Source of the DNA: Zootoca vivipara
Lineage: Eukaryota
Assembly (NCBI RefSeq): GCF_963506605.1
Contig: NC_083277.1
Span: 94,116,001-94,180,000 of the forward strand
Reading direction: 5' to 3'
DNA: 64,000 nucleotides
This document shows, one piece after another, positions 41,401 to 64,000 of this stretch. Position 1 is the first letter of the stretch, and every line of letters starts with the position of its first letter. Both the position numbers and the translations under genes were made by a program. The notes under the pieces are model-generated. The model ran no database searches, was not told the origin of the DNA, and saw only the letters and a program-made list of their open reading frames with translations.

Positions 41401-44400
41401 TTGCTCATGTTTAGTTCTTGTTTGGCTTGGTATTATGTGCAAAGTGGGACAGTGTCAATTATTATTTATGGGGAATGGAAAACCAAAAATTAAGCAATAT
41501 ATCAGAATAGCCACTGGCATAGGAATGAGAAACTAATAAGATAAAAATATTGGATTGATATAGGTGTTTGCAGTTTAGGATCTGTTTACTGAGCTAAGAA
41601 AGACAAAAGTTGGTATTCCACAAGTTTCAGTAAAAAGCATTGACAGTCTTAGAACTGTCCCATACAAAATGTTATATGTTCATGGCACTTCTATGCATAA
41701 TTTAGCTACATATTTTGATAAATGTCTCCAGATTTTAACCAACAATTAACAAGTGGTGTCTGAAATGGTTTTGCTTGGTTAATGGCCTGTTCTGTGGAGT
41801 TTTAAGCACTATACGTACACATAAATGTATACATACAATGCATCCAACTGTAGTTAGCTGAGATTCTAATCTGCCAAATCATGGTACATTTGAGGACAAG
41901 GTGTTCAGTACAATTTTGTTCTTGCATTGAGCAGGGTTCTTCAAAAATATGTTCTTTGTGTGCAGAGATACAGCCTATTGCTTTCATTGGAGGTTTTTAA
42001 GCAGAGGCTGGGTAGCCATCGTGCCATGGATGCTTTCGTTGAGATTCCTGCATTGTAGGGGGTTGGAGTAGATGGCCCTCAGGGTTCCTTTCAACTCTAC
42101 AGTTCTATGATTCTATTTGTATATATGTTATCATTAATGTTACCAGATAATGGAGGTGTTTTAAATTTTATCTGAAATAGACTGTTAAAGCGTGTTTCAT
42201 GGTAGTGAGTATTGCCCTTTCTTAAGAAGCATTAAATCTTCCAGTAGTTTTGGGTTCGAGCCCCACATTGGGCAAAAGGTTCATGTATTGCAGGGGAGTT
42301 GGACTAGATGATCTTCATGGTGCCTTACAGTTCAACAATTCTATGATTCTGATAACCTTTCTGTAATACTTTCCTTTTTAAGGAAAAATTAAGAAAGAGA
42401 ACTGAAGAGCCTGAGCGTGATGATCGGTTAAAAAAAGAGAAACTAGAACGTGAAGAGCGAGAGAAGGAACGTGAAAGGGAAGAAAAGGAAAGAAAGCGAC
42501 GGCGTGAAGAAGAAGAAAAGGAAAAAGAGCGGGCTCGTGATAGAGAGAGACGAAAGAGGAGTCGTTCACGAAGCAGACACTCAAGCAGAACTTCTGACAG
42601 GAGGGGTAGTCGGTCAAGGGACCATAAAAGATCAAGAAGCAAGGACAGAAGACGAAGCAGGTATCAGTCTGGGAAGGGGCTAAGGACATTAGATTTCTTT
42701 GAAGTTAATTGAATAAATTGAGACGGATGGTGAGTCGAGAGAACAAAGGTGTAGACTTCCTGAAAAACTGCTTGAGGTTTTCAGTACTTAAAATTCCTCA
42801 CAAGTATCTGAAAACTTGGCATAAATAGGGTTTAACCAGTTTTGAGCAAACTTTGGCTTACATTTCTCAAGGCAGTTTTACACTAAGCACTTTGCAGCAA
42901 AACTGTGGTTTATATCAAAGTTTGGTTTAAGTGTGAATCTGCCTCCCCCCAATTTTGCCAATCCATATGTGGCTTCTTTTCTGCCCACACAATTCAAACA
43001 AGTCATAATAGGAGGAGTTTGAGCTGCACAGGCAGTTTCAGTTGAACTGTGATTTATCGAGTTACAGTACATGAACCAGCTCTTTGTTGCCAAATGTTTG
43101 CTATGAAACTGTCTTCAGAAGTGGAATCCAAAGTTTCTTAAAACTTTATAAGCCTTATATGTGTCAATTTTTTATGTCAAGTTTACTTGTGATAAATTTA
43201 GGGAAGTGCTTTAACTATTATTGGGGATAGTCAGCTAAATTATTGCATATGCAGAATGACTTCTGCTTGTGCAATGGGACACTCCCCCCCCCCCGGCCCT
43301 GTCCATTACTCACACCATCCCCAAATCTGCTCCAGAGAGTTGAGGGAACCATTGGAACATATCTAGGGACATGTGAGGGGGGAGAATGTCCCATTGTGCC
43401 AGGAGAAATCCTTTCACTGGTGGAACGTTCACATTAGCACCAGGTTGAATTCTACCCATTCTTCTTACATTTTTAGGAGTCGAGATCGACGCAGAAGCAG
43501 AAGCCATGATAGGTCAGACAGAAAACATAGATCACGTAGCAGGGACAAAAGGCGGTCAAAGAGTCGGGATCGGAAATCTTACAAGCACAGAAGCAAAAGC
43601 AGAGAGCGAGACCAAGACAGGAAATCTAAGGAAAAAGGTCAGTTCATATGACTGGTGAAGAATAGTTTTTCTGCAGAGCTGTGCCATGATCTTCTGGTGA
43701 TTGTTGCCCCCATAGATTCCTCCTGAACTATTAAATACAAACTTTTAAATACTTGATGCACCTTTCCTTCTCCCTTCCAATACTGTAGCATATTAGTATT
43801 AGTATATTCAGAACCATGTTTTTGGTGGTGGTTGTAAAACAACCAGGAGTCAGAATTCCTGATCTGTAAATAACCCAAACATTTACCAGTCAAGCTTCAT
43901 CTGCCTTCTGCCCACTTCTGCATTTTGCAGACTCAACAATACTAACAGTAAATTGGTGTGATATTTAGAGTGTTCCTGAAGACATGGTGCATAAAGATGG
44001 CATGTCACTACTGTTCCATGTTCTTACATACAGTTACTTCCCTTTGGTGAACACTTTCTCTTCAGCCTCTGTGGTTTATTATTCACCCTTGTCTGCATTT
44101 CCAACACTTTAGGAATATGAAAGAGCCTAATTAAATCTGTTCTTGGCTTGTTATTTATTTTTCAGGTATTAAGTTAAATATGTATTTTTTAAAATCAGTT
44201 CTAATGAATGTAGTAGTTTTCCTTATTGTGGTGGATACTGCACTGGCTGATTTCTTGCATTAGCATATAATGGTAATCAAGTTCTAGTGCAACATGATCG
44301 ACTTTAGCAAATTTTGGGCTCTCCTCCTGCAAACCTGAGATAAAGAATTCATAAGCTTCTGCTTTTAGTTAACCAGAGTTTGTCATGTTGTTTGAATATG

Positions 44401-47400
44401 AAATTGTGGTAAGGACTAACCTTGCTTGTGACACAGCAGCCACAGTAAGCAAAAGCTTCTGAACTGTTCCTCTTGACCACACAGGAGAGGCGAGCACACA
44501 AGCCTGAAGCTCATTGTGAATCATTCCATTGTTTGTTACTTTGTCCACCCAGAAATAACATAAAACCCCTCTCTCTCAAATTAAGAATCCGTGTTAGCTT
44601 CAATTCCCATTTTTAAATGACATGCACATATATAGCCATGTAATGGGATACTTGCAAAACCTCGAAGGTCAGAGGTACACCTCTTGTCTAAAAGATGTTG
44701 GGGAAATTTCTGGCCTCTGGAACAATTTTCAGTGTAGTCTTCTCTTGAGAATAAGTATGCCTGTTTTCCAAGCCCATTATCAAAGTAACTTGGGAAATGG
44801 CCTGTTATATATGCTCCGCCCTAAATTATTTTATTTGATACGCTGGAATCTCCCTTCTCAGCATGTGGGTCACTTACACTGCAATCATATGCCTGTCTAC
44901 TGGGAAGTAAGCCCCAAAGTTAAACTGAGCTTACTCCCAGGTAGGTGTGTAGGATTGCTGCCTTAGTGGTGAACAATATGAATGTTTAGTGTTCTGCATA
45001 ACGCTTTGTGGTCTCCACATTGAAAGGAAGCCTTTAAAAGCTGTCATCAGCTAGCCAGCCTCTTCAAGCTTCACTGCCTCAATTTTGGATTGTATTTCAT
45101 AAATCCCTGTAAGGTCTCCTTACTAGATAGAGGCTTGGAGTTTTTTTCTGCTTTAGGCATCCTTTATATGTATAGAATGATGGTCATTGAATTAGATATG
45201 ACTGCCAGTTATTCGCCTCTAGAAATATTCATTTTGGTATGTTGGTTGTGTATTTCTTTTTATTAATGCAAAGTTAAACAAATTCCTGCTCAAGGAAGTA
45301 TTACCAAAGTCCCCAGGACTGTGATTAAAAAAAGCAGAGTAATGGGAATGGTACAAATATATGGTTGTGACCCAGTGAGGCAAGCCTGATGCACTCAGCT
45401 GTGTACTATTCTAAAATGTGGCATCAGAATAGGCTGCAGAGTCTATTATGGCATTCATTGGTTCTAGAGAAGACAACAGTGCTTCTTGCATAAATAGTGA
45501 TCTTATTATCTCCAGGGGGTCTGCATTTAAACAATCTTGGACTGCTTCATTCTCTTCTATTCAATGCCTTTTGTCTGGATTTTCAAAGAACTGAGTTTGT
45601 GTATAAACTAATGGTTTTATAGCTTAGTAGAATACTTCACAATTTAATGGTATGCAATGCTAAATAACGTTTATCTATACCAGTAACACGGGAAGGTATC
45701 TGCCCAGAAGTCATAACCAGAATATACAGCTCATTTCCCCTTTCCCAGTCACCCTGTAACACTAAAAAGTGGTGTGACTCAACTACATTGCACACACCAG
45801 CTGAGGGTGTGTTTAAATACTATTCTTGCTATTTTCCCACTTTCTCGCCTACAACTCTTTTGGTGTTGTGATTGTGGTTACTCTTGGAATTTGACTTCCT
45901 CCCATGTCACTTGAGCATTGGTAAAAAAAAAATGTTAGTCATTGTTAAGCAGTTGTATGAATGTCTGTCCTCCCTACATGTTCTATATTCTATTCTGTTG
46001 TACTTATGAAAGCATGTTTTAAGTTTATTCAGTTAATTACACATAGGACCTTTCTGAAGAAAGCCTCAGTGAAGATAGGAGCACAGATATTATCAACTGG
46101 TCTGGTATTGAGGAACTGGAATTTTAAGCAAATCTTGCTCATTGCCTTGCATTAAATTGGAGCTTCATAGTAAGAAAATACCCCAGATCTGAGAGAAACT
46201 GAACAAATACAAAATAAATTTTCAGTTCTATTAACTTGACTGTGAAACACTCCACCCCGATTTCTGACCCTATTCAGTGAAACAGTTAAGTTTCTCTTAC
46301 TTAAGCACAGCTAGTCAGTATTTGAACAGATAGCACTGCAGCATTTGTACTGTATGTGTGCCCATTTTATTTCCCTGTTTATGATCAGAAAAGCAATTTT
46401 CAAGAAATAGGTAGTAGGATTATACTCCTTGCAGATATGCTATGGGGGTCGGTAACAAATCTTTCATCAAACAGAATTATTCCTTGAGCTCTACTTACCA
46501 AATCAAAGATAAACTACTTTAGCGTAGACAAAAAAGTTTTTATCGTATAGCTTCCTATTTTAATTCACAGGCCAATAGGTCAGTAACTGTTTTACAGTTG
46601 CCAAGAAAAGCGCCTCTCTCCCCCATCTGTCCAAACTCAAAGCAATAAAACACCTTCTGGAGAATCTACATATTTTGCCCATTTAAAGGGCTGTTGAGCT
46701 CTATCGTATCTACATAGGACAGAAGATAAGCTTATTGGACTGACAGCTAGTCCTCTGCGGGGCAACAAGACTGGTGTTCCTCAGTGGATCTACATGTGAA
46801 TCGGCGATACCTAATAAAGCAAAAATTGAAGACTTTCAAAAAGGTCAGTTAGTGCAACCGATCCAGGCAATTATTACATCAAACAGACACCTCTTAAGAG
46901 TTCCAAAGTTAACTGGACTTTGGTGACTGGTTTTCTCTCCGCTTCAAATATTGAGTGTTTTCCCTTAGGCAGTGGTTCCTTTGTAGTTCCTCCCCACCTC
47001 CCCTTTTTTGGCTGTTATCTGCATAATAAAGCTGTTCAAATTTTCTTGATGAAAGGAATTGAAACTAACTTCAAAAAAATATTTTGTTTCTACAGTAGGC
47101 CATAAGTATGCCTTTCCAGAAACTTCACCCATACAGCTTTGACAGTATCTTCTGTTTGTTCCCTGTTCTTTATTCTTTGCTCTTGCATTAAATACAGCCA
47201 TTCAAATAATCTAATATACTTTATCTGGATGCTTAAAGAATAATTTTGGTTCATTATGCTGATGAGAGAAATACCCCCAAGTGATTTCAGTGTACAGCAT
47301 ACACGGCTTACACTATATGCATGTTATATATACATAACAGCTTTAATGGGACAAAAACCTGGTAACCATGTCTGATATGAAAACTGCCCACCATAATGAG

Positions 47401-49447
47401 CTATGCATTGAATAAGAGAAAGACACATGGCTATCTTAAATTTTTATTTTCTCCAGGTCAACTCATTATTCTGGCTTTACTAATTTTATTGGCAGCCAAT
47501 CCATTGTCAGATTCTCTTATAGCTACCTCTGCTATTTAGAGTTACCTGTTTTCAGTGAACCAGGAGTCCCATTAACCTAGTGTCCGAATTTCAAGCAACT
47601 TTGTCAAGTTTGTAACTTGTAATTGTTTTGGACATGAAAATTAAGTGCATCTTCTTGCAAGATAGGAAAATGAAAATTGAAAACCTATTGTGCTTTGAAG
47701 GTTACTTCTTTTTGGCTCCCAGCAGTCATGGATTGTTAAATATCAGCCTGATAATGCACTTACACAGATTACTTTCTCTCTTCTTGGCAGTGGTTGGCAA
47801 GTAGGGAGACAATCCCCAATCCTGGTGAGGTGATGGGGCATAGCAGGCAAATGAAGGTAAAGGAGGTGGGAATGGGCTCTGGAAAAAGAGTGAGGGAAGA
47901 GCAGGCACTACCATTTGAGAATAGTACATGAAGCCATGGAGAAAAAGGTTTCGGGAATACGGGCTATCAAAAAGATAAGCATGCAAATCTATAAAAACAA
48001 TACAAAATTTAAATGTTCTTAAAACTTCAGGCAGTAATATGCATAATTGATTCAAATAGCCAAATCAAAATCAGCTCTGTGGTTTGGATCCAGACTTTGC
48101 CTTTCCCAGATGAAAGAGACTCCTTCCATCCAGATTTTCAGCCGAGTGGGAGGAGAGGTAATGTTTGCCAATTCACCTCTCTGCAGCCCCCAGTTCCACC
48201 TCCCATGTTCTTCCAGAAGGTGTTGCAACCCTCCAGAACAGTGTTAGAGGTGGCGCAGGGTGTTGCATTGAGGAGAAATAATTAAAATCACTCCTTCCTC
48301 TGTCACCTGCAATATCTCCACCAATGAAGTAAGGCCTGGATCTAACCCTGTACGTTAAGGTTTGTTACCTAAGATCAGTACGTAAAACTGTAGAAATTAA
48401 ATTGCTTTAAGGTGTTCTGTGCATATGCTGTCTGAGAGGTCAAGAGTTCAAACATGTTCTGAATACCAATTGCGGGAAACCACAATAGGTAAGCATCCTC
48501 TTGTACTCAAATCCTGCTTGCTAGTTTCCTACAGACAGCTGTTTGGCTACTGTGAGAACAGGATGCTGGACTAGATGGATCACTGGCCTGATCCAGCAGG
48601 CTCTCCTTATATCATTTTGTTCTTATATGAAGTTTTAAAAACATAGGGTCATTTCCCTCTCTGCTCTGGCCCAGCAGATTAGGTGTTTGCATCAGAGGTC
48701 ATAGGAAGCTGCCAACAGGAATCAGACCAACAAGTCCCTTTTGCTCAGTATTTTCTGACCAGCAGTGGCTCTCCAGCATATAAGACAATAAGTCTGTCTA
48801 AGCCCTGTCTGGATATGCCAGGGGCTGAAGCTGGGACTTTCTGTATGCAAGGCAGGCGCTCTACCACTGAGCTACGGTCCTTCCCCAAATTTGTTCATGG
48901 TCTTGAGCTAAATTAAGTGATTAAAAGTTGTATACTGTGATGAGTCTGTAGTTTTAGACACATTTTACACTAGTCTCCACATCAGGTAGTTTTCAGTTAG
49001 GTAGCATGTACATGGCTTGCGGTTTTGACCAGAACTATCAAACAGGTCAGTGACTTTTGCATTGTAATCTTAAGCAGTTCTGCCTCCCCTTTGTGCTATC
49101 CCTTCCCTCAGATCTTGTTCATTCTGGTGGAATATTTCATTCAATATTAGCACTGTAACTTTGATCTCTAGTTTGCAATTTTACAGCCAATTGCTGATGT
49201 CTCGGCATATACTTCACCCCTGAAAAGCGTGATACCTTGTGTGTCTTTACTGTGAAGTCCATGGTCAATGTCTTCTTTCATGGCAGAAAAGAGGGGATCT
49301 GATGATAAAAAAAGTAGTGTGAAGTCCAGTAGTCGGGAAAAACAGAGTGAAGACACAAGCATGGACTCCAAGGAAGGCGATGCTAAGAATGAGGTCAATG
49401 GGACCAGTGAAGACATTAAATCTGAAGGTGACACTCAGTCCAATTAA
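31737..49447 (+). CDS. LUC7L3: LUC7-like 3 pre-mRNA splicing factor (CROP), 431 aa; exons 31737-31835, 35933-35999, 38011-38050, 38250-38394, 39710-39787, 39867-39971, 40813-40974, 42383-42660, 43477-43637, 49287-49447
   Basis: Ten GT-AG exons (1296 nt) in frame: MISAAQLLDELMGRDRN, ZnF1 (VCKYYLCGFCP...GPCEKIH), coiled coil, ZnF2 (CEVCGAFL...DDHLMGKQH), RE/RS domain, and end EDIKSEGDTQSN*. Confidence 0.97.
33375..34190 (+). mobile_element. LINE L2 3' fragment, interrupted at ~33570-33685
   Basis: Decayed GVTL.LKEQV..L.V.LDP.LSLEAQV, DYCN, LQLVQN.AARLLTG and LHWL motifs. Confidence 0.75.
34728..34974. mobile_element. Tc1/pogo (Tigger-like) MITE
   Basis: TA|CCCTGTTTCTCCTAAAATAAGACA ... TGTCTTATTTTCGGAGAAACACGG|TA. 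Confidence 0.88.
35933..35999 (+). CDS. LUC7L3: LUC7L3 exon 2 (ZnF1)
   Basis: acag|GTT TGT ... TTA G|gtaagt, 67 bp. Confidence 0.96.
36465..36793. mobile_element. Tigger-like MITE
   Basis: TA|CAGGCAACCCTCTACTTA ... TAAGTGGACGGACGCCTG|TA, imperfect TIRs. Confidence 0.65.
36890..37232 (-). mobile_element. Near full-length Sauria SINE
   Basis: Reverse complement reads GGACGTGGGTGGCGCTGTGG...AGAGCCTAGGGCTTGCC...CCTTTACCTTT. Confidence 0.92.
38011..38050 (+). CDS. LUC7L3: LUC7L3 exon 3
   Basis: ctag|GT CCT TGT ... CA|gtgagt, 40 bp. Confidence 0.95.
38250..38394 (+). CDS. LUC7L3: LUC7L3 exon 4
   Basis: tcag|G TAT GAG ... GGT|gtaagt, 145 bp. Confidence 0.95.
39710..39787 (+). CDS. LUC7L3: LUC7L3 exon 5
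   Basis: ttag|CAA GCA GCA GGA ... CAG|gtaatt, 78 bp; this is the only acceptor in frame with the GGT|gtaagt donor. Confidence 0.9.
39867..39971 (+). CDS. LUC7L3: LUC7L3 exon 6
   Basis: ttag|ATT GAA ... TCG|gtaagt, 105 bp; branch point TACTAAC at 39843-39849. Confidence 0.96.
40813..40974 (+). CDS. LUC7L3: LUC7L3 exon 7 (ZnF2)
   Basis: ccag|ACA ATT ... AAA|gtatgt, 162 bp. Confidence 0.96.
41985..42352 (+). mobile_element. CR1 3' end (41985-42116) and a SINE with CR1-like tail (~42250-42352)
   Basis: gggttggagtagatggccctc...ttctatgattctat, CR1 terminal repeat seen twice. Confidence 0.75.
42383..42660 (+). CDS. LUC7L3: LUC7L3 exon 8 (RE/RS-rich)
   Basis: taag|GAA AAA ... AG|gtatca, 278 bp. 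Confidence 0.95.
43477..43637 (+). CDS. LUC7L3: LUC7L3 exon 9 (RS domain)
   Basis: ttag|G AGT CGA ... AAA G|gtcagt, 161 bp. Confidence 0.95.
48440..48885. mobile_element. CR1-like 3' end (+, ~48440-48625) and tRNA-derived SINE (-, ~48700-48885)
   Basis: aacaggatgctggactagatgg...cctgatccagcagg; ...gctctaccactgagctacggtccttcccc. Confidence 0.7.
49287..49447 (+). CDS. LUC7L3: LUC7L3 exon 10, canonical C-terminus
   Basis: gcag|AA AAG AGG ... AAT TAA. Confidence 0.95.
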
Positions 49448-49876: not shown

Positions 49877-50166
49877 NNNNNNNNNNNNNNNNNNNNNNNN
49901 NNNNNNNNNNNNNNNNNNNNNNNNNNNNNNNNNNNNNNNNNNNNNNNNNNNNNNNNNNNNNNNNNNNNNNNNNNNNNNNNNNNNNNNNNNNNNNNNNNNN
50001 NNNNNNNNNNNNNNNNNNNNNNNNNNNNNNNNNNNNNNNNNNNNNNNNNNNNNNNNNNNNNNNNNNNNNNNNNNNNNNNNNNNNNNNNNNNNNNNNNNNN
50101 NNNNNNNNNNNNNNNNNNNNNNNNNNNNNNNNNNNNNNNNNNNNNNNNNNNNNNNNNNNNNNNNNN
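49877..50166. other. Assembly gap (290 N) in the LUC7L3 3' region
   Basis: Run of N. Confidence 1.
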
Positions 50167-51112: not shown

Positions 51113-51625
51113 GAGAACCATGTGACAAGTCTGCGAAGAAGCCTGAAGACTGCTTAATACGAAGATCTGCTTTAAAATGAGGTGAAAGAAAGCTGTAGTG
51201 GCATAGAAAAAAAATTAAAGTTCAGTTAGATTTTTTAAAATAAAAATTAATTGAGGACTGTTGTGACCTCTCAAAATGCAGAGAGAAGTTAATAAGCAAA
51301 CATGCTACTGAGAATTTAAGTCCTGTTATCATTTTTTTTCCTATAAGACTTTTAAGACGATAAACCAACATAACCTGAACACATGGCTTGCTCAGTGTTT
51401 AATTGCAAGTTTTCATTCTTGAACTTTGAAACACAAGGATAAATGTTTAGTATTTTGTGTGACTCAGACTAAAATAAACCCCATTTTTACAACAAAGCTA
51501 TACCTGGCTTCTTGATATACCCTAATGGAAATACAGTATCTATGACTTTCTGTTACACATTTGATTGTCATTGAGTGTTTAATATTAAATAGACTTCTTT
51601 CCAAATAAATCAAATGTGTTCAAGT
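51113..51625 (+). other. LUC7L3: Probable distal non-coding 3' UTR exon of LUC7L3, with AATAAA at 51473-51478 and 51604-51609
   Basis: Pyrimidine tract plus ttatag| at 51112; strong upstream donor GAG|gtaagt at 49480/1; poly(A) hexamers downstream. Confidence 0.55.
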
Positions 51626-53005
51626 TCATTCTTGTCTATCCCCATGCCCCCACCCCAGATCAAAATGAGAGGTTGGGGTATTCCTCTTTATCAAAATTTA
51701 CGTAACCAATTTCTGTCCCAGTAGTTTCCATAGCTTTTTTAAAAGTGTAAATAAAGATAAAGAGGTAACACTGCAAATTTCATGTGGTTGTGTTTTCTTG
51801 GATATGCACTAAGATATATAGTTAAAGTATAAAATATTTGTATTTGTTGGCAAAGTCAGACCTGCATAATATTTGAGAGAAGTGTCAAATTAGAAGCGAG
51901 AATAGGAACAGAAGACCATATGATCCGATACTCCACACATTTTATGTAACCTGCCACTTGTATAAAGGAAAGCATGTAGAACACGTTGTCAGCCTAGGAA
52001 CCAGACAAAAGGAAACTAATAACCTTGTCGGGGTATTTCTCTATGTAATCCAGTCAGCCCAAACCTTAAGTAGATGAGGGCCTACATCAACTGTTAGAAG
52101 ACATGTTGGCAAATGCACACAGCTTCATGACAGGTGAATTGAGGTGGTGCCACAAGGCCTAAAGGAAAATTTTAATTTACACACTTTAAAACTCTTGGCT
52201 ACCCTGTTACAAGTTGATAGTGCAAAAATAAAGCTGCCATTGAAAACTCTTCTTAGGTTCACAGGATAAAGCATCACATAAATACATCGTTTTCTGTTGG
52301 TTTGGTTTGCATTGCATGCCTTTTTATATAAAACTACAAAAATAGTTTTCTAAATGCATAGATTTGCTTAGTTACCAGCATTGCTATATCATCTCTCAAA
52401 CTAACATTACTATGCAACAAGCAATATTATAGAACAAAAGCTGGTAACGGAAAACACTTGTTAAACCTGTTTCTCCATTGTTTATCTTCTCAAAACAATT
52501 CAGTTTTTACAGCATTATATTATAAAGAGCATAGGACAAGAAAACTGAACTTTTACTTGTTCCTCAGTTCATTTGTCTGTCTTACTGTTACACAGAGAAG
52601 GTACCTAGCAGTACTTAAAAAAAAAAAGGACCAGTGATTATGACAACACTAGTTTTTCTGTGGCAACGTTGGCCTGAAAACAATGTATAAAATATATTGA
52701 CTCAATACCTATCATTAGGTGCCAGACACTAGTTGACTGAGGGAACAAATATTTATTGAGGAAACAATTGTGATTAGTTTCCCCAACAAATGTTTTCCAC
52801 TTGTGCTTCTTCGTATAGGCTACACAAGAGACTGCTGAAGTGCTTGAGCAATCCAAGAGCCATCTTTGAGATAGCACCACTCAAGAAATATTAACCAAAG
52901 TTAAGAAAAATATTGCCTATAAAAATATTGAATAGTAAACCCATACTGCTTTAATTTTAACGAGAATAAGGTTTTTAGATATCAACTTCCTAGAAGTCTT
53001 AAACT

Positions 53006-53149
53006 TCAGTATGTCAGCTTTGCTGCTTTAGTGTTAAAGCAGGGTCTTTCCATTAGCGTTGCTGAAGCACTTCTGAAAGGAGAACTGATGCCTCTCACCA
53101 AAACCAGCTCTAGCTCTTGAAAATCCTGAAGCCTGGCAACATCTTTATC
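53006..53149 (-). CDS. ANKRD40CL: ANKRD40-like paralogue terminal coding exon (DKDVARLQDFQELELVL...AAKLTY*)
   Basis: aag|GAT AAA ... TAC TGA, 144 bp; minus-strand AATAAA at 52757-52752. Confidence 0.92.
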   Translation of the reverse strand, partial: DKDVARLQDFQELELVLVRGISSPFRSASATLMERPCFNTKAAKLTY

Positions 53150-56100
53150 CTTGAATGAAAGACAAAAATATCAAACTGATTAGTTGCAGTAACTTTATAA
53201 AATCAGTTTAACAAAGCAAGTGACAAAGCAGGGTGAGAAGATGTATTGAGATAACCAGATGAAATACATCTAAAGAACTACTTTTAAGTCTCCATTATGA
53301 AATAATATTCCTTGTACCAAGTTGTTGAGTAGGAAGTCACTCCAACAAATCTACATTTATAATGCTAACTCACTTCATTCACAGAACTGCATTAGTATGG
53401 TGGGTTGCTAGAGTAATAGCCACGGCATGACCACTTAGTCATTACCATACGTGGGAAGATATACCAGCTTTTATCTGATGTAAACATTTTTGCTTGGATC
53501 TAGCATTTTCCTGAATGTGCTTGAAGAAGGTGGAGGGAGTAAAATCTTGCTGGTTCCTCTAGAGCCCACTGTAAAGTGTCTTATCACTGTGTAGCTCAGT
53601 TGGTTAGAGCATGGTGCTGATAACACCATATGGGACAGCTGTGTATTCCTGCATTGCAGGAGGTTGGACTAGATGATCCTTGGGGTCCCTTCCAACTATG
53701 ATTCTGTGGGAAATTGGGAACTCCAACAAGCAATGTAAAGGGCAAAGCAGGATAGGGATCAGAAACTGAAAACCAGCAAACAGCACTACTTCAGCAGGAG
53801 TAGTGTTACATAAAAGAGACATTCTGGATACAACCCCTTGTAAATCTGAAAACGTTTGGCTGTATCCAACAAAGTTGTCCCATTCGCACAGAGATTCCAC
53901 TTGCACAATGGAACTTCCCCTCTCTTCCCCCGTGCACCCCAAAATCTCTTCTGCGGGTTCTGCTAACCCTCCAGAGCAGATTTTCAGGAACATGCTGAGA
54001 AAAGCGGAAGTTCTGTTGCACAAAAGACGGAGTAGAAGTAGAGCAGGCAGGCAGCCCCTGCAGGGTCAACTCCAGTACTGTACTGAGAATGTGCTGGCAA
54101 AGTAGGACTTCAGCAGGACTGAAGACAGCATCTTAGAACCGTAATTAAACATTGGGGCTGGCTCCATAATCAATTTGGGGCCTGATTCTGGGTCAGGTCA
54201 GCCCCAGAACAACCTGCAGCTGATCTGGTGCCAGATCAGATGAGGAGGAGGTGTGCACAGCCCTAATTAAAAAGCAGCGCCCATCATTCTTCAAGTAGTC
54301 CCCTAAAACCCCTTATCGGGGTACTCAGCCACTGGATGAATGACTGAATATGCTAACTGCTTTGACCATTTTAAAAGACATGCTGCAAGTACTGTATTAT
54401 ACTTTATCTTGTTTATGCTATTTTTTATGTGCAACACAATATACAACCAAGAAACAAAGATTTTCCTACCTCTGCTTTTAAGTGGTACAGTCCAGCAGAA
54501 ACTGCACTAGGATTCTGTAAATTGCATATGTTATTAGAGCCAAACTCTGCATTCTGTTCACTATTTGAGAGCTGGCTGGCTCTGCCTGTTAAAAATTCTG
54601 AAGGCTCCCATACCCAAAGGCAGAGTGAGTTGGAGAGAGGTTCAGCTACACCCACAGGATTGCAGGAGCCACCGGCTGCCTTTCTCCATCAGTTGCTTAT
54701 CTCTACTTAGCAGCTACTTTGCCCTAAGGCCGAAGAACTGGGAAGGAGAAGAGGCAAATTTAGTCACTAAGGGTCAAAGAACACCTATGCTACCTAAAGA
54801 ATTGCCTGCTACCTAAAATTACCAGAATAAACTAGCAGATAGTTGCCTGTACAAAGCATTATCTCAGGCTACTTTTAAAATTGCCTATGTTCTGTTTTGG
54901 ACAGAGATTTATTCTAACATCACTGGTAATCGATGGTCCTTACCTTTCTTATCAGTGTATTCGGTAGCTTTCTAACCTTTTCCACTTGCTCAGGATTAAT
55001 GCCCAATTCATGGCAACTCACTCTGAGCAAATCTTGGTAAGTCAGTTCTTGTCTGTCCAGTTCAATTTCAATGAAGTCATTCTCTTTAGGGTTCTGAACT
55101 CTTACTTTAAGTACCAGTTCTAGAAGTGAAGAGGAAAGAGTATTTTGAAGTTAATCATCGCCAAAATGCAGAGAAACAGAAATGACAGCCACAAACCCAA
55201 ATATATATCCTTGGAAATATACCCTACAAATGTTAACAGATGTTTACTAGACCACCGCCTCTATCATTTATATTTGCTCTTTGCACAGACTCAATAGAAT
55301 CCAGTAGCAGCAAACTCCCATTGTAAAGCAGTGGGGCTCTGTCATGAACTCTGCTGTGTTGTGTGGCCACAGATTCTCAGATATATGCATAAGTAATGAC
55401 TGAAGAACAAAGTTGAGAAGTTTAAGGTTGAGAAGGGAACAAACACGAAGAACAACAAGCTACGGTATGGCAATGTTGCTACAGGCAACTGCAGCAAAAA
55501 AAAGTCTACATTATGCACACACATACATGCTCTGCAGACGAACAGCCCCAGTCCACTAAAATTACTCAAGGAGATCAGTAAGTGTAGAGTACAATGAAGA
55601 AGCAAGTGGGGTGGAGGGCTGTGACAGCTGTATAAAGCTATTAAGGGGCTAAAGATGGAAAAGTGATTCACAGGCCACTGCCACAAAGAGATGAGCTCTT
55701 CAGCTCTCCACCTTGTCTTCTTACCCATCTCATTCTCTTGCTTAGTGGCTGCGTCTTCACACTGATATTTCCAGCATCTGATTAGTGCCAAGTGTGCTTT
55801 AAAAAAAGAAAAAATCTGCATCTGCAGATTTAATGAAGCCCTGAAGTTAATGATTCTCTACTCTTAAGCAATTAAATGTTAAAGCTGACCAGCATAGAGG
55901 ATAGGCGTGCTTTAGTTTTATGGTTGAAGCTAAGTAGGTGGAAGACAGCCTAGGCTCCATGTGTAAGTTGCTCTGAGCTCAGAAGAGAAGGGCACAAGTG
56001 AAACATCATAAATAATGCCTCAATCCTAATTTTATATGTGCCAGAGTTAACTGTCGCAAGCAGATTAACGTACTGCTTTGAAATGTTAAAGGTAAAGGGA

Positions 56101-59100
56101 CCCCTGACCGTTAGGTCCAGTCATGACCGACTCGTGTTGCAGCGCTCATCTCATGTTATTGGCCAAGAGAGCTGGCGTACAGCTTCCAGGTCATGTGGCC
56201 AGCATGACTAAGCCGCTTCTGGCGAACCAGAGCAGCACACGGAAACGCTGTTTACCTTCCCGCTGTTTATCTACTTGCACTTTGACGTGCTTTTGAACTG
56301 CTAGGTTGGCAGGAGCTGGGACCGAGCAACGGGAGCTCACTGTCGCGGGGATTTAAACCGCCGACAGCAAGCCCTAGGCTCTGTGGTTTAACCCACAGCG
56401 CCACCCACGTCCCACACTTTGAAATGTTACAGTGCAAGTCTCATTCTTGCCACCTGCACACCAATCTGAAGTCTGGCACATGTTTTTCAGTAGGAGTTGT
56501 CTAGTTTGGAAGAGCTGCCCATTTCCTTCATTACAATGTCACCGTTTCCTTCAACCCATTGCACTCCAACCAACAATTCTGCTATTATTCCAGGAAGATT
56601 TCCAAATCACAGATACAACAACTACTTCCTCAAAAGTTCATTTCCCTCGTGAACACTGATCTGTGACAACCTATGATCATATTACACAGAAGCATAATAA
56701 CACAATACTCATCCTGTTCATGCGGCAATTAAGAGAAAATGCCCCATCTTGACAAAGCTCTACCAACTCTCTTTCAGGAAAGAAAAAGAAGAAAAGGTTC
56801 TTAAAGCAGATATGAAACACTAAAGGTAGTTATGCACATGCACTGTCTCCAGCTATGCAGTAAAAGCATTACAATGGAAAAATACTATTCAGTACCTTGC
56901 ATATTATATGAAAAAGTTCCTGTGAGAAGCAGCGGCTGTACGGGTGGTGCAGTGCCCATACAGCAGCCATTTGCTTGCTGAGGTCCATGTCTAGGAACAG
57001 ATGAGGTCAAGAGAGCTCTGTTGTGAGATGTAGATGAGGGATAAACAGGGCAGCTCTGGACTCTGGACACTGCGCATTCTGATACTCCTGAGCTGATGGG
57101 AGAAGGAAGCTCCCCTTCATGCAGGTCTTCAGAAAGTTCAGTTTCAGCATCCAAGGAAATGGGTGTGCAAGTATTTTCAAGCTGAGTTACTGATAAACAA
57201 GGGTTAGGTTCACTCTCTGATAAGTAAGAGATGGCAGTGCTATTGTCCTCAGGTGGTGCTAAGAGATGAGGGGCATTGTCCTTTTCTTGATAGTCAACGC
57301 AAGGGAATGACGGGTTTGTTGGAGAGTCTCCAGCATTTGGCAGCTTTAAGTTACTAACTTCTTGATTGTCACATTCTTCCACTTCAATGGGGGTGGGGTG
57401 GGAAAGAAAAATAGAATATTTTAATAATTAAATCTATTTTAAATAATGGCAAGCAGAATTCTAATGCCACCCAGAACGTCTGCCAAATATGTATATTTAA
57501 AATCATAAACGGCTAGTTTTTAGCTAAAAGAAAGCAAACTTATTTCAGAGTAGAATTCAGTATGGCAAAAAATACATGCAGCTGTTTAATGTACATATAG
57601 AATCAATCCAGAGAGCTGGATTAGCAAATCTATGGTTCATGGAAGAAACATCCTGCCGAAATTTTATTTGCTTATTGGAATTGGTAAGTGAAAAGATGTA
57701 TGTACACACATACAGGCCAAAGCTGCATTGCTGAAGAAATACTCTTTAATCTGTACCCCAGCTTTAATTTGACGTTCTGGGGGGCTATACTTTTCTGGAG
57801 TGAATTGGAGAAGAGGCATTTTTAGGTTCCCAGTATACCATACTCTGCTTGACCATCTGTCCAAATTCCTAGAAGCCACCATGACCAAAGGAATGGAATC
57901 TAAGTATTACAGAATCTGACTGGCACAAGAGCTCTCATTTACTGTAATTGAACAGCATGTGCAAAACAATAGTTAAAAAAAATTTCTGGTCCTATATACA
58001 GTTACTCAGAAAGAAGTCCAAAAAAGGGCAAGGGGATTACCCCAAACTCCTATATCAGGCAGCTCCCCAATTGCAGTCAGGTCAGTAAATCCTGGTCATA
58101 AGTCTACCTTTGTTTTAGATGAGACAAGCAGCAAGGAGCAAAGCTTTCACTGTCATTGCTCTCAGGCTTTGGGATGCCCAGCCTAAGGTACAGAGCAAGT
58201 CTTTGTTGTTGCTGGGATTTCCCAGAGGATGAAAAACGTGTTTTGTTCATTGACTTTTAGCTGATGTGACTAGTTCTGTTTTACATTTAAAGCTGTTTTA
58301 ATTTATGTGATATTAAAACTGTTGCTAACATCTTTAAGCCTCATAGGAAAACGGCCTATAAAAGCTTAAAACAAATAAAATTAAAACTGCAGCCTCAGTT
58401 TCTCTAGCCCACAAACAGCCTCACATAATATTCTGCCTGTAACTGTAAATAGGAAGTCTTGTCTTCCTTGGGAACTTATCAGGGACTGATGAAAAGATCA
58501 GAGATGGCAGATAACTTGTCTGAAAAATGCAGTGCATCTAATACATTACATTAGTTCATAGTATATTTTTGGAAAGACAAATTCAATATGTCGAGTATAC
58601 CTCCCAGAAGCTTTCTGATTTCTTTCTTTGAAGTTAAATGTGCTGCCAGCTCTCCATTAACTGTGAAAATCTCTTTATCAGCTTGAGAATCCAGCAGGTA
58701 AGAAACCACTTGGGTATGATTCCGCTTGCAAGCCCAGTGCAAACATGTCCTGTAAAAGTTAAACCTATTTGTTAGTAAGCATTTGTAAAGTTACCGTGTT
58801 TCTCATATTATAAGACACGTCTTATATTTATTTTTTCCTCAAAAAAACACACTATGGCTTATTTTCAAGGGATGTCTTATTTTTTTCCTCCTCCTCCTGC
58901 CGCGGCCGGCATTGCTGCTGCGCCTATCACTATGTCTTATTTTCGGGGTATGGCTTATATTCCTTGAATGCTTAAAAATCCTGCTATGGCTTATTTTATG
59001 GGTATGTCTTAAAATATGAGAAACAGGGTATTACTCTGAAAGTCACTGTTTTGTATCATTAAATGTCCGCATGATGTGTACCATGAGAGCTGCTTTAAAA

Positions 59101-62062
59101 ATGCTAAAATTTGCAGAGATGAAACAATTACACCTTGTCTATTGATCCAGATTGTTACGGTAGTTGTACTTATTTTCCACTTACAGGTAGGTAGCCATGT
59201 TGGTCTGAGTCAAAACAAAATAAAAAAATTCCTTCAGTAGCACCTTAAAGACCAACTAAGTTTTTATTTAAGGTCTTTAAGGTGCTACTGAAGGAATTTT
59301 TTTTTCCACTGACCTCAATATAATTCAAGTCATGACCAATTTCTTCCATTGATTACAATGGGACCTAAGTTCAACTAAGTTCAAACTTAGTCTGAATCCA
59401 ATCTTATATGTTACTGCTATGCAAGAATGAAGGCTTCGTGACCAGGCTGAGGTTTATTTTCTGTTGTAAATCAACAGGCCCAATTTGACTGTGCAGTCAA
59501 AGCTTGCTTATTGAGCTAGCATTCAACACCATAAGCTGGAGAGGGAGAGAATAATGTTTAAGCTAAATGACAGCTAATGTTTAAGCTAACTAATGCTCAT
59601 AAAGGTACAGTTGTCCTTGATGCACATACATGCTTCTTTTGTTTTACTGGTTTCATTTGCACATCACAGGAGAAGCAACCAGAAGAGTTTGCACCTATGG
59701 CACTTGCTCAGAATTCCAAGGCCCAAAAGTATTGTCCGTTTTCAGTATCAAATTCAACCCCAATATCTCTCATACTGGGCCGTTTTTGTCAATTTCGCAT
59801 GGCCCTTTGCAAGCAATAAAGCAGGCACAAGAGTGTTGCAGCCAAGAAGATGGCTACATGCCTAAAGGCAGTAGCAGCCAGTGGAGTGGATTGCATTGTG
59901 CAGGTGCAGCAGCAGAGCCAATGCAACCCTCCCAACACCTTGTCCCTCCATTCTCGGCTACTGGTAGCGATCACCATGTTGGGAAGCCAGAAGTGGAACA
60001 CACCCCGCACTCTGCCCCTATCGGGCTCTGCTAAATATCACACACACATCCTCCCTTTGTACTGGAACAAATATTAGCCATATGTATTATATGCTACCAT
60101 CTCATCATGCCTGAGTGTTACTGCAGCAGTACAATCTCCAGTCCTGAGCTGAGCGGGGGGGGGGGGGGCAGGAAGACTGCTGCCTGCCAGCTTACAGGTA
60201 GGTAGCCGTGTTGGTCTGAGTCGAAGCAAAATAAAAAAATTCCTTCAGTAGCACCTTAAAGACCAACTAAGTTTATATTTTGGTATGAGCTTTCGTGTGC
60301 ATGCACACTTCTGGAAGAAATAGACTGGAAAGAGAAGTTGCTGAATTGCAACTTATCACCAAGCTCAAAACCATGGAGGGACCTGGTTTGAACAGAGATA
60401 TCGGGTTCTTATCTCATTATACATGATAAGCGATCTTCAGCCATCTCAACCCTTGCTTTTTCATGCAAAACCATTTGCAGTCGTTTGCGGTCATCAACAG
60501 CTATCAGTCAGTCAATCACCCATTTCCACCACCCTTCTGAGTGATCCCCCCTCCCCATCCCCACCCCTCCCCACCCCTTCTCTACATAAGTGCCTGGAAA
60601 CTTCCATTTCACTGTATCTGAAGAAGTGTGCATGCACACGAAAGCTCATACCAAAATAAAAACTTAGTTGGTCTTTAAGGTGCTACTGAAGGAATTTTTT
60701 TTATTATTATTTTAAAGCAAATGAATTATACAGCACCAATTAACTCCATCAGAAGGGCATTTTCTAAGCCATCATATTCACAATTCAAACCTTTAGGACT
60801 TGCAGTGACGGTCATAATTATAAGACTAATATGCTGCCAGACCACAAGCCCTGAATATGAGTGCACTGAAGGACCCAAGTTGCAATTTTAATGAAAGAGC
60901 CACTCATGGCAACAGTATAGGATTCAGAGAGCAAAACAAAGGCATGCAAACTACTTCAATGACCAAATTACCGTAAAAAGCCTTCAATCAGACACAATTT
61001 GAAAAACCTGAAACCCCACACTTTTAAGCCTCCTCTGCTTGCACTCACACAATCGTATAGAGGTAATCACGAAGACACACGTCACATAAATCCTTGTGCT
61101 CACTGGATGTGATTTAATAGGAGAGGAACTGTAGCTCAGGGGTAAATGGTATACTTTGCATGCATAAAGTGTCAAGTTCATAGGAACAGAAGGGCCCTGC
61201 TGAATCAGACCAAAAGCCCACCTGGTCAGACATCCTGTTCCCACACTGGCCAAACCTATGAGAAGCTCACAAGCAGCACATGAGCAAAACAGCACCACTT
61301 TTCCCAATTGTGTTCCCCAGCAATGGCGTTCATACTGCCTTCAGTACTGGAGACAGTACAGAGCCATCATGACTAGTACCTGATAGCTTTATCCTCCATG
61401 AATTTGTCTAACCCCCTTTTGAAGTCATTCAAGTTGTTGATCACTACATCCTGTGGCAGCAAATTCCATTATGTTTAAATATGTACACTGTGTGTCCTAC
61501 TCAATTTTTGCTTAGGCAGAGGTGTCTAAGACTCTCTTCCAACTGGCAGTGGCTCTCTAGACAATATTGGACTAGATCCAATGGTAGCTCTTTGTATATT
61601 GTTGGACTGTAACTCTCATCAATCCCAGCCAGCAGGGCCAAAAGACAGGGACAGCAGGAGCTGTAGGCAAACAACATCTGGAGAACTACAGGTTAGACAT
61701 ACTAGGGCTCTAGAGCCCAGTGCTCTGCCTCTTGAGCAAAGCTGCTTCGTGTGCAAGGTTTTGTGAGAACACCTGTCTTCAGATTTGGGGAGTTTTCATG
61801 GGAATAGTACTACAGGCACTCTCCCTACAAGGGCATCTTTAGACTCATTCCTATACAACAGGGGTTCCCATTTGCTCAAAGCCTGTAACAATTCTCCCAT
61901 ATAAGAATTTGCATTAGAAAAATAATAGAAGCTGTGCTTGATCCTTTGGGGAGAACACGGGATTATGTCATCTGCTTTCTGTTCTCTGTGACCTGAATAA
62001 CACAATGGCTAAGAGCCAAACTGCACAACTACATGTTATGCAGGGGATTTTCCACTAATAAT

Positions 62063-62097
<35 letters not shown>

Positions 62098-63152
62098 TGG
62101 ATCAGAACAGTGGCACTGGGCAAGAGTTTTACTTGAACCTCTCCCCTCACACCAGTTCCCCAAGATAATAAACCCCTTGTCCCTCAGGGGACTAGCACTG
62201 CTGCTCTGATCAAATTAACTCCTCCCTCCCAATCACAATGGCTCATCTTAGAAGTGAAAATCAATGTGCTGGAAGATTCATCACAGTTCTGAGTAAACTG
62301 AAGGCAGGCTCTCAGAGTGATAGCTTGGGAGTCTCCAAATGTCAGCCCCACCAACATTTATCTCATTTTGAGCAGCACTTACTCATAGGTTCCCTATAAA
62401 TATTATTATAACAAATATTAAATGTCTGCAATTATGAGAAAATAGTGGTCTTGACCTGCCTTGTAGGGCTAAAGCTGCTTGAACAGGAACACACACACAC
62501 ACACACACCTGGATGTTATTATGAAAGGTTTGTGACTGATGGCTGGGCAAATGTGTGATTTGTTCATACTGGCTCTATTTTCCCAGGAGTCTGTAGAACC
62601 AAAGCCTGAAAGGAATTTCTGCTTAGAATTTCATAACCAGGCAGCCCACTAATCAGGATGAAGCCACGACATCTGACCCATCTATTCTTGTCAGATGCTG
62701 GTGAGATTTTGCCCACCCCCGTGGGGAGCGTTTCTGTAACTTGCCTTTAAGATGAACTCCCAGTAAACACGCATTTCAGAGCCAGACGGAGGGGGGGGCA
62801 CGGGAACACACAGGGGGGAAAGATGCTCTTGGACACGGGTACAGAGGGTACACATTGGCTGAAGTTGCATTTGCGTGTAACGTGTTGCTGGCGGTTGCCT
62901 CACCATATACAGCCTCGGAAGTAAGTGTATTAGCGACGATGGCTGCTGCCCTGCTGCTAACAACGGGAATAAGGAGCACAGCGCGGAGGGGCTGGGGGAG
63001 CAGGCGAGAAAATGAGAGGCGTCTTACCAGCCATTGATCTCATTCTGGGCATTCACCTCCACCCCCTTGTCGAGCAGCGTCTGCACCTCCTCTAGGTCGC
63101 CTAGTGCAGCAGCTTCCCTGAGCCTCTCCTCCAGCTCCAGGTGGCTGCTCAT
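53006..63152 (-). CDS. ANKRD40CL: Full-length ANKRD40 paralogue at the ANKRD40CL locus, 359 aa; exons 63152-63028, 58749-58601, 57381-56896, 55119-54944, 53149-53006
   Basis: Five GT-AG exons (125+149+486+176+144 = 1080 nt) form an intact ORF with the same intron phases as ANKRD40. The symbol rests on synteny (downstream of LUC7L3, minus strand) and the shorter QNPKENDF loop, which I recall from human ANKRD40CL. Confidence 0.88.
53588..53708 (+). mobile_element. Short tRNA-head SINE with CR1-type tail
   Basis: gtagctcagttggttagagc (A box), then ggttggactagatgatcc...ccttccaactatgattct. Confidence 0.75.
54944..55119 (-). CDS. ANKRD40CL: ANKRD40-like paralogue exon 4
   Basis: tag|AA CTG GTA ... 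AAG|gtaagg, 176 bp. Confidence 0.93.
56089..56416 (-). mobile_element. Full-length Sauria SINE with 13-bp TSD CTTTGAAATGTTA
   Basis: TSD at 56076-56088 and 56417-56429; same family as 36890 and 27347. Confidence 0.93.
56896..57381 (-). CDS. ANKRD40CL: ANKRD40-like paralogue exon 3 (linker)
   Basis: aag|TG GAA GAA ... CAA G|gtactg, 486 bp open; matches ORF 56885..57382. Confidence 0.88.
58601..58749 (-). CDS. ANKRD40CL: ANKRD40-like paralogue exon 2 (ankyrin repeat)
   Basis: cag|G ACA TGT ... GGA G|gtatac, 149 bp; branch point TACTAAC on the minus strand at 58777-58771. Confidence 0.92.
58794..59028. mobile_element. Tigger-like MITE, same family as 34728-34974, opposite orientation
   Basis: TA|CCGTGTTTCTCATATTATAAGACA ... 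TGTCTTAAAATATGAGAAACAGGG|TA. Confidence 0.88.
59181..59305. mobile_element. Penelope-like terminal fragment folded into an inverted repeat
   Basis: ttacaggtaggtagccatgttggtctgag...agcaccttaaagaccaactaag followed by its reverse complement. Confidence 0.75.
60192..60703. mobile_element. Penelope-like element with inverted terminal copies (60192-60311 and ~60613-60703)
   Basis: agcaccttaaagaccaactaag...gagctttcgtgtgcatgcacacttc and its reverse complement, the arrangement typical of truncated squamate Penelope insertions. Confidence 0.75.
61120..61495. mobile_element. tRNA-SINE head (+) abutting a CR1 3' fragment (-)
   Basis: gtagctcaggggta...tttgcatgc, then ctgctgaatcagaccaaaagccca...catcctgttcccaca...tcactacatcctgtggcagcaaattcca. 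Confidence 0.65.
62066..62096. repeat. (GT)n microsatellite
   Basis: Direct reading. Confidence 0.95.
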
Positions 63153-63610
63153 CCTCTCTCTGCCCCCCTTCCCCACCGCTCTCCTGGAGGGCTGACCCAG
63201 AAGTGCCCCTTGCACACCCTTGCAGGGATCTCTCGCTCCGGGAGTGGGAGCTCCTGCCACCGCCGCCGCAGCTAGAGCAGCTCCTCCTTGCCCAGCTCCC
63301 TCTCGTCTGCGGGACTCTATTCTCAGTGACACACCAGGCAGAAGCCTCTGGTTCCTACGTGCCCAGGCAGAGCTGGGCCGGTCGAAAGGTGGGCTGGGGA
63401 AAGAGAGGGAAGAAATCCCTCCGGAGGTGTAAAGGGCCCTGTTCGCATCGCATCCGCAGGCGAGAGATTGAGAAGCGAGCAGGGAGGGCAGCCGCCTCTT
63501 AGAACGCTCGGATTAGTGATGCTGAGCCCCGTTGCCCTGGCAACGAAGGGATTCTGAGAGATGAGCAAGTCACTGAGGAGCCTCAGCGGCGGCCAGAGCC
63601 CAAATGCTTC
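62690..63610 (-). promoter_or_regulatory. CpG island/promoter of the ANKRD40 paralogue, with RFX X-box GTTGCCCTGGCAAC at 63531-63544
   Basis: GC/CpG-rich around exon 1; 13/14 match to palindromic X-box GTTGCCATGGCAAC. Confidence 0.7.
63028..63152 (-). CDS. ANKRD40CL: ANKRD40-like paralogue exon 1 (MSSHLELEERLREAAALGDLEEVQTLLDKGVEVNAQNEINGW)
   Basis: ATG at 63152; TG|gtaaga donor. Confidence 0.9.
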
Positions 63611-64000
63611 TAACAGCAGCAACAAATTACAACACAGGGGTTTGAACAATGTGCAGGAGCTCCTTTTGAAGTGGCTTTCTAAGGTTGTTTATGAAGGCTT
63701 GTGCAGAACCTTGCCATAGCCAACTGATTTTAATTATCCTGTGTTGTTGGGTTTTGTTTTAAAGCACAATGAATGGGTAAAAAGGCATTTCTAAGGAAAC
63801 CAATTCCTCACAAACCACTTGCTGAAAGCACGAGATGAACGTGACACATGCCAGGGACCTGGCTCCTTATTTACACGCTTGGAAGAGAGACCTTGGGCCA
63901 CGGTTTGGACCACGATTCAGTGAGCCTTGCCATACTTAAGAACCGTAGATTTGTGGAGTTGGAAGGGACACCCCCCCACACACAAGGGTTATCTAGTCCA

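Follow-up and report, generated by a model that had tools for sequence, protein, structure and literature searches.

Human ANKRD40CL is a protein of 114 amino acids (aa), as stated in the accessible text of bioRxiv 10.1101/734657. Its transcript LINC00483 is gut-specific and conserved among vertebrates according to the accessible part of PMC7795790, in which it is re-annotated as ANKRD40CL, and the top-listed papers on LINC00483/ANKRD40CL present it, by their titles, as a non-coding microRNA sponge in cancers. Human ANKRD40 was validated as a direct substrate of protein kinase A (PKA) (accessible part of PMC6797479), and an ANKRD40 peptide phosphorylated at Ser271 was used in PMC5651433, as far as its accessible part tells. 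A conceptual parallel to the placental form of ANKRD40CL, for which no homology is claimed, is pTINCR, a ubiquitin-like microprotein from a former long non-coding RNA (excerpts of PMC10006087 and PMC9652315). The accessible parts of PMC7855711, PMC8243332, and PMC10243072 contain nothing on the origin of ANKRD40CL, and a literature search, with subscription journals largely outside its reach, found no paper on the evolution of ANKRD40 and ANKRD40CL as a pair. Figure S4 of PMC7795790 may cover part of the pair's history, which seems to be unpublished.

Here, we analyse 64,000 nucleotides (nt) of the lizard Zootoca vivipara (NC_083277.1, positions 94,116,001 to 94,180,000), called the window below, which contain ANKRD40 and a second copy of the gene. 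We consider it highly probable that this copy is an intact five-exon paralogue, likely orthologous to placental ANKRD40CL and likely the product of a duplication of the whole ANKRD40 gene before mammals and reptiles parted, that it encodes a predicted adaptor protein, and that the placental copy would later have lost its ankyrin half.

The second ANKRD40 copy and its position

The second copy extends from 63152 to 53006 on the minus strand. Its five coding exons are separated by four introns, all with GT-AG borders, in phases 2, 1, 1, and 0, and they form a frame of 1080 nt, corresponding to 359 codons and a TGA, without internal stops (Table 1). ANKRD40 proper has exons at 28382–28249, 25458–25310, 24796–24317, 22641–22460, and 17942–17796, on the same strand and with the same phases. 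The identities between the two copies in exons 1 to 5 are 29/42, 35/49, 43/153, 50/59, and 32/47 residues, respectively. An earlier note on this DNA had described a five-exon paralogue of ANKRD40 with matching orientation and phases, an open 359-codon frame, ankyrin exons, and 50 identities among 59 residues of exon 4, all of which was reproduced, the 50/59 exactly. Exon 1 and exon 2 each pass the Pfam ankyrin cut-off alone, as do the proteins P0001/P0002. Both genes share the ankyrin, linker, and ubiquitin-like layout and a terminal Tyr. ANKRD40 differs by a longer, nine-residue loop with Ser/Thr, a dibasic PKA-type tail motif, a conserved linker motif, and, in squamates, about half the rate of change.

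A search of the Zootoca genome with exon 4 gave three candidates, two of which matched, and both were the copies in the window. Apart from exons 4 and 5 and copies of mobile elements, the two loci have no stretch of at least 40 bases in common. The comparison of the two window copies with each other gave a synonymous divergence (dS) above 1.3, which is near saturation, and a non-synonymous divergence (dN) of 0.09–0.30 in exons 1, 2, 4, and 5. The limited shared DNA and these dS and dN values mean that the duplication is old and that both copies are under constraint. The dN/dS per exon suggested in the earlier note was thus obtained between the copies. The residues of exon 1 are better kept than those of exon 3, with 42/42 identical to Podarcis, 36/40 to Varanus, and 36–39/40 across Varanus, Elgaria, and Rhineura.

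The CpG promoter that had been proposed for the paralogue is present as an enrichment and is weaker than claimed. Region 62700–63700 has a GC content of 58% and a CpG observed/expected ratio of 0.52, compared with 0.29 for the whole window and 0.88 for the island of LUC7L3. Two parts of it (62701–63110 and 63261–63650) satisfy the 200-bp 0.5/0.6 CpG rule, which makes it a weak island. Roughly 3 kb separate the first coding exon of ANKRD40 from the strong CpG island of LUC7L3 (28382–32470), the exon having only a 200-bp CpG-rich patch nearby, and the head-to-head ANKRD40 and LUC7L3 genes may have that island in common.

The name L3 of the LUC7-family gene between the two copies rests on gene order. 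An ABC-transporter exon near the start of the window, the short piece of which gave no Pfam hit, is presumably part of ABCC3. Beyond the window are a Kunitz-Ig-NTR exon of the WFIKKN type (WFIKKN2-type) and then a BTG-family gene of the TOB1 type, and the order in Zootoca is therefore ABCC3-like, ANKRD40, LUC7, paralogue, WFIKKN2-type, TOB1-type. The horse genes listed in the accessible part of PMC6679042 follow the order ABCC3, ANKRD40, LUC7L3, ANKRD40CL, WFIKKN2, TOB1; the list was compared by order. Because the two orders are the same, the paralogue occupies the slot of ANKRD40CL, and the claim that it lies at the mammalian ANKRD40CL position, between LUC7L3 and WFIKKN2, is borne out. Indirect support for the same arrangement in other sauropsids comes from many species in which the two genes are on contigs of equal length, and from Phrynocephalus, in which the locus tags of the two genes are 002122 and 002124.

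The 3' ends of LUC7L3 and the paralogue face each other within about 300 bases (51600–51931), as 10 of 40 molecules of RNA run X19 begin at 51644 and a paralogue contig reaches 51931. A run of 290 N at 49877–50166 is located in the 3' region of LUC7L3, outside the paralogue.

Table 1 Features of the paralogue and its neighbours in the window (UTR, untranslated region; ORF, open reading frame; X1, sequencing run with assembled contigs)
Feature	Coordinates	Strand	Remarks
Paralogue exon 1: ATG, first ankyrin repeat	63028..63152	-	125 nt, phase 2
Paralogue exon 2: second ankyrin repeat and capping helices	58601..58749	-	149 nt, phase 1
Paralogue exon 3: predicted disordered linker without PNY motif	56896..57381	-	486 nt, phase 1; X1 record 4 over 56896-57383
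Paralogue exon 4: ubiquitin-like domain, loop two residues shorter	54944..55119	-	176 nt, phase 0
Paralogue exon 5, coding part: end of ubiquitin-like domain, Tyr-ending tail, TGA	53006..53149	-	144 nt
Paralogue 3' UTR, minimum extent	51931..53005	-	X1 record 1; A(A/T)TAAA hexamers ~52955, ~52757, ~52176
Weak CpG-enriched promoter region around paralogue exon 1	62701..63650	.	CpG counts; X1 record 8 at 63164-63640
ANKRD40 proper, five coding exons, 363 aa	17796..28382	-	Same translation as P0123, which is named ANKRD40 (Zootoca vivipara)
LUC7L3 coding span, between the two copies	31740..49444 (approximate)	+	ORF scan; Pfam LUC7 on first exon under cut-off; last exon found

Probable orthology with placental ANKRD40CL

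The main tree was calculated from 39 of about 460 proteins, chosen by hand, using four conserved blocks, and after the hagfish was dropped it comprised 38 rows of 228 columns. ANKRD40 proteins of mammals and sauropsids form one clade (support 98/91), and a second clade (99/96) contains the Zootoca paralogue, its lizard, snake, tuatara, turtle, and bird counterparts, and placental ANKRD40CL. Frog, pufferfish, and ray are placed outside both amniote clades (94/73). In a tree without the seven squamate paralogues, placental ANKRD40CL is sister to the tuatara, turtle, and bird paralogues (85/78), which mirrors the ANKRD40 side. The approximately unbiased (AU) test rejected the grouping of placental ANKRD40CL with mammal ANKRD40 (p 0.0055, or 0.017 without squamate paralogues) and a duplication restricted to sauropsids (p 0.004), and it was compatible with a single clade of sauropsid paralogues (p 0.14). 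The proposal of a duplication before the reptile-mammal split is upheld by the two amniote clades and by these rejections, and the trees indicate that the duplication is probably at least as old as amniotes, perhaps older.

A tandem duplication specific to squamates or lizards, with no relation to mammalian ANKRD40CL, would gain some credit from the extra long-loop ANKRD40 copies that geckos do carry. The paralogue falls into the clade of placental ANKRD40CL, apart from lizard ANKRD40, orthologues are present in tuatara, turtles, and birds, and the AU test rejected a squamate-only duplication with p 2e-5; the sparse shared DNA and saturated dS point the same way. The main tree and the AU test thus refute this origin, and we regard its probability as practically negligible.

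The second clade is also marked by shared features of the C-terminal half. The loop of the ubiquitin-like domain consists of seven residues in all paralogue rows and of nine in ANKRD40, frog, teleosts, ray, and hagfish. The length of the domain plus tail is mostly 106 residues in the paralogue clade, compared with 109 in ANKRD40, and the first basic residue of the tail is replaced by S or T in the clade. The tail motif [RK][RK]AS occurs in 89 of 92 long-loop rows, in none of the 136 sauropsid paralogue rows, and in none of the 36 placental ANKRD40CL rows; the rows take in isoforms and close kin, with 11 unclassed rows set aside. PKA-type sites of the form [RK][RK]x[ST] number two in Zootoca ANKRD40 and zero in the paralogue. 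The letters of the loop are QNPKEN in squamates and primates, and QNLREN, QNLRDN, or QTLRES in turtles, birds, and tuatara. Since tuatara, the sister to squamates, reads otherwise, the match between lizards and primates is probably convergent, and only the loop length would be a shared mark, with backing from the tail length and the S/T substitution. The QNPKENDF motif named in the earlier note is indeed present in primate ANKRD40CL rows. Placental ANKRD40CL (LINC00483) is like the lizard gene in that it lies between LUC7L3 and WFIKKN2, has a short loop, a domain plus tail of 106 residues, and the S/T substitution in the tail, and belongs to the same clade. It differs in having no ankyrins, a length of 110–192 aa compared with the 359-aa frame of the lizard, other N-terminal exons, and several primate isoforms that skip the first strand.

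The search with exon 4 of the paralogue was evaluated on the best 120 of 460 proteins, that with exon 4 of ANKRD40 on the best 120 of 698, and that with a profile of four placental ANKRD40CL proteins on the best 120 of 593 proteins of at least 260 aa. Among the matches listed, full-length short-loop proteins with ankyrins come from lizards, python, tuatara, turtles, and birds, and most are named "ANKRD40-like". The placental profile found the short loop in each of the first 80 of its best 120 long matches, 79 of them of sauropsid type and one from a scorpion, and in 94 of the 120 overall, none of which is mammalian. Annotated orthologues include XP_034954896.1 and XP_060127038.1 (Zootoca), XP_053231727.1 (Podarcis), and XP_015151021.2 (chicken). 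The sauropsid "ANKRD40-like" records represent the same gene and its orthologues, with 10 or 17 residues added at the junction of exons 1 and 2 in both Zootoca models. The full-length gene is already in public annotations. At NCBI, the name "putative ANKRD40 C-terminal-like" is attached to a blackbird isoform with ankyrins and to a gecko copy, and the paralogues of chicken, green turtle, and Pogona carry the plain name ANKRD40. In Gekko species, the usual ANKRD40 is accompanied by a further long-loop copy (P0152, P0165).

The lizard had been put forward as a keeper of the ancestral two-copy system. It is not exceptional in this, because the full-length gene is annotated across squamates, tuatara, turtles, and birds, and turtles are closer to the older state. 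In the main tree, the path length from the duplication is 0.43 for the Zootoca paralogue, 0.19 for lizard ANKRD40, and 0.15–0.19 for turtle paralogues. The linker motif, whose Pro and Tyr show a conservation of 90% or more in 49 ANKRD40 proteins that extend to invertebrates, was found with a strict pattern in 1/12 squamate paralogues, 0/1 tuatara, 4/4 turtles, 6/7 birds, 27/29 ANKRD40 rows, and 1/5 outgroups, some of the misses being isoforms without that segment. The lizard copy is therefore derived, with about twice the rate of ANKRD40 and the conserved linker motif gone, and the ancestral pair is better modelled by turtles.

Rival histories, probable loss of ankyrins, and transcripts

Several results weigh against the ancient origin and the intact state of the paralogue. 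The AU test did not reject a placement of placental ANKRD40CL outside both amniote clades (p 0.06). With squamates included, placental ANKRD40CL, which gives only 106 columns and has a long branch, nests beside an agamid, a biologically impossible position that indicates long-branch attraction. The duplication may be older than amniotes, as the AU test was compatible with frog beside ANKRD40 (p 0.16) and borderline for frog beside the paralogue clade (p 0.047), the frog being represented by one row in which exon 2 is missing. In a tree of the C-terminal part only (62 rows, 109 columns, three mammalian rows without the first strand omitted), 26 of 58 inner branches stayed unresolved. A seven-residue loop is also found in many invertebrate rows, and the two-residue deletion cannot be placed uniquely on the tree. 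The matches listed (120 each of 460, 698, and 593) included no paralogue from marsupials, monotremes, crocodilians, or amphibians, and nothing of exon 3 could be detected in placental N-termini. The Zootoca transcript data described below, the extended RefSeq models, and the isoforms that start at exon 2 belong with these points. Concerning the mechanism, the phosphorylated site of ANKRD40 is not given in the accessible part of PMC6797479. Crocodilian ANKRD40 was present among the matches listed and a crocodilian short-loop paralogue was not; it is possible that crocodilians lost the paralogue.

These results leave room for two events at one site, in which sauropsids duplicated the whole gene, placentals separately copied exons 4–5 of their own ANKRD40, and the short loops converged. 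The different loop letters (QNLREN in turtles versus QNPKEN in primates) fit two deletions, and the lack of a marsupial or monotreme paralogue among the matches listed and of an exon-3 remnant in placental N-termini fits as well. Such a history requires the same position, loop length, tail length, and tail substitution to have arisen twice, and it conflicts with the AU rejections both of placental ANKRD40CL with mammal ANKRD40 and of a sauropsid-only duplication. We consider it very unlikely, and prefer a single whole-gene duplication followed by the loss of the ankyrin half in placentals.

The claim that mammals lost the ankyrins is supported for placentals (primates, ruminants, and squirrels) and goes too far as a statement on all mammals. 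The ankyrin motif is present in none of 36 placental ANKRD40CL rows with an intact end, which are 110–192 aa long, include primates, ruminants, and squirrels, and begin with one or two short exons of unrelated appearance; no human row was among them. Remnants of exons 2 and 3 in the placental N-termini were rejected, since the profile-profile alignment of nine N-termini did no better than the null (scores as high were reached by 122, 136, and 89 of 200 shuffles). In a test anchored at the end of exon 2, the first placental exon ranked in the top 10 of about 210 positions for 10/11 paralogue targets when taken from squirrel, 11/11 from cattle, 9/11 from vervet, 6/11 from gibbon, and 3/11 from sheep. 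The test is confounded by similar ranks against ANKRD40 and by a shared final Gly, and the second placental exon ranked 4–174. The result is suggestive for the first placental exon only and does not constitute evidence. In many placental isoforms, 114-aa forms of primates among them, exon 4 begins five residues late, so that the first predicted strand of the domain is missing (P0395–P0408, P0414, P0416, P0430); the domain may then fail to fold. The paralogue of the gecko Paroedura picta is annotated without ankyrin exons, from exon 3 on (265–267 aa; P0094, P0440), which is possibly a second ankyrin loss or an incomplete model.

Transcription in Zootoca was assessed from contigs of run X1, which we took to be RNA by guess. 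The 1426 letters of record 1 equal the sum of 1219 (UTR and exon 5), 1, 176 (exon 4), and an overlap of 30, and a difference inside exon 4 carries the depth of record 1, 11.6. Record 4 (56896–57383) comprises exon 3 and two letters common to the ends of exon 2 and intron 2, record 6 stops 30 letters inside the exon-2 donor, and record 8 is located on the CpG promoter (63164–63640). Of the four splice junctions that the earlier note had proposed to check in RNA, 3-4 and 4-5 are indirectly supported by the length arithmetic and 2-3 by contig ends alone, and 1-2 was not seen in the X1 contigs or among the joints listed for runs X19–X21. Raw RNA runs X19–X21, about 6 in 100 of each, had a depth of 0–1.6 in exon bins and no paralogue junction among the joints listed. 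Twelve differences were counted in X1, five silent and six replacement ones in exon 3 (of 11 listed) and one silent one in exon 4. Both RefSeq Zootoca models (P0001, P0387) extend exon 2 upstream by 10–17 residues within the ankyrin repeat (58781–58790, 63028). They look mis-spliced, as the plain GT-AG splice gives the Podarcis/Lacerta form. In a bird, the entire 359-aa orthologue (P0453) is encoded by a contig that was derived from a run and is no longer than 2478 bases, and this implies that the full-length message is spliced in that species.

The X1 depth is 0.1 over exon 1, 8.5 at 59416–60083 in distal intron 1, and 0 at 61091–62758. The contigs cover 59416–61090, beside mobile-element copies, and leave 61091–62758 bare. 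Three lacertid isoforms start at exon 2. The X1 coverage, together with the X2 isoforms of Podarcis and Lacerta, the starts of which are shortly before exon 2, gives a hint of a second promoter within intron 1; the alternative first exon of Lacerta had no match in Zootoca intron 1. With the orthology itself correct, the lizard gene might therefore be part-way to the mammalian state, with most transcripts starting in intron 1 and encoding an ankyrin-defective protein, and with the full-length form a minor product. The gecko copy annotated from exon 3 on and the linker motif present in only one of 12 squamate rows agree with this. Exon 1 is kept better than exon 3 in comparisons with Podarcis, Varanus, Elgaria, and Rhineura, a contig sits on the CpG promoter, and holes in contig coverage prove nothing. 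We regard the part-way state as unlikely, albeit with an appreciable chance of being right.

Predicted protein and meaning of the pair

The AlphaFold model of the Podarcis orthologue, calculated from 56 sequences, contains three helix pairs in residues 2–89, with a predicted local distance difference test (pLDDT) score of 95–98 for residues 11–90, and a compact domain of residues 255–330 (pLDDT 81–95) with the order strand-strand-helix-strand. The linker between them mostly has pLDDT <50, and a predicted template modelling (pTM) score of 0.37 suggests that the domains have no fixed packing. Ankyrin matches, with Z up to 17.7 and a root-mean-square deviation (rmsd) of 1.0 over 90 residues, filled the fold-match list of the full model. 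The C-terminal domain corresponds to Pfam PF27687 (ANKRD40_UBL), a match precomputed on proteins with an exon 4 identical to that of the window; a local Pfam scan of the domain gave no hit. The matches of a low-confidence model of macaque ANKRD40CL (pLDDT 47) were for the most part ubiquitin-like chains, the best with a Z of 5.5 (rmsd 3.1 over 66) that falls short of the trusted range, and a sequence search against solved structures returned spurious repeat-protein matches only and no relative. Annotations of both paralogues (birds, turtles, and a rodent; P0076, P0117, P0170, P0181) include an isoform of about 200 aa in which exon 3 is skipped and the ankyrins run straight into the ubiquitin-like domain.

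Conjugatable ubiquitin-like modifiers end in di-glycine after the beta-grasp fold. The paralogue does not, its tail closing with Thr-Tyr, and because the C-terminal di-glycine is absent the protein would not be conjugated. The models are consistent with a predicted non-enzymatic adaptor, in which the ankyrins would bind one partner and the ubiquitin-like domain with its Tyr-ending tail would bind another. Ser271 of ANKRD40 falls in the loop that is shortened in the paralogue, and neither the dibasic tail motif of the PKA type nor the Ser/Thr of the loop occurs anywhere in the paralogue clade; for this reason the paralogue may be a version of ANKRD40 that is blind to phosphorylation. The stand-alone domain of placentals would then compete with ANKRD40 for partners of the tail or the domain. 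We put forward the phosphorylation-blind duplicate and its placental competitor tentatively, as a possible but doubtful scheme.

We further speculate, as a quite unlikely history when taken as a whole, that LINC00483 is the eroded remnant of a 320-million-year-old duplicate. Such a duplicate would have shed its phosphosites, of the PKA type and in the loop, first. It would then have lost the ankyrin half more than once, in placentals and perhaps in geckos, with lacertids part-way there by means of the intron-1 promoter, and what is left would be a ubiquitin-like microprotein, enriched in the gut and in competition with ANKRD40. Reptiles would represent the living series of these stages.

The gain in knowledge is modest and local, because genes often take the path of duplication and later domain loss, many genomes already have this gene in their annotation, and no function is known for either paralogue. 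The paralogues of chicken, green turtle, and Pogona that are called plain ANKRD40 are a naming trap. ANKRD40 and the paralogue, with and without ankyrins, provide a clear test pair, and the descent from a full-length protein gene that was kept across sauropsids supports the reading of LINC00483/ANKRD40CL as protein-coding.

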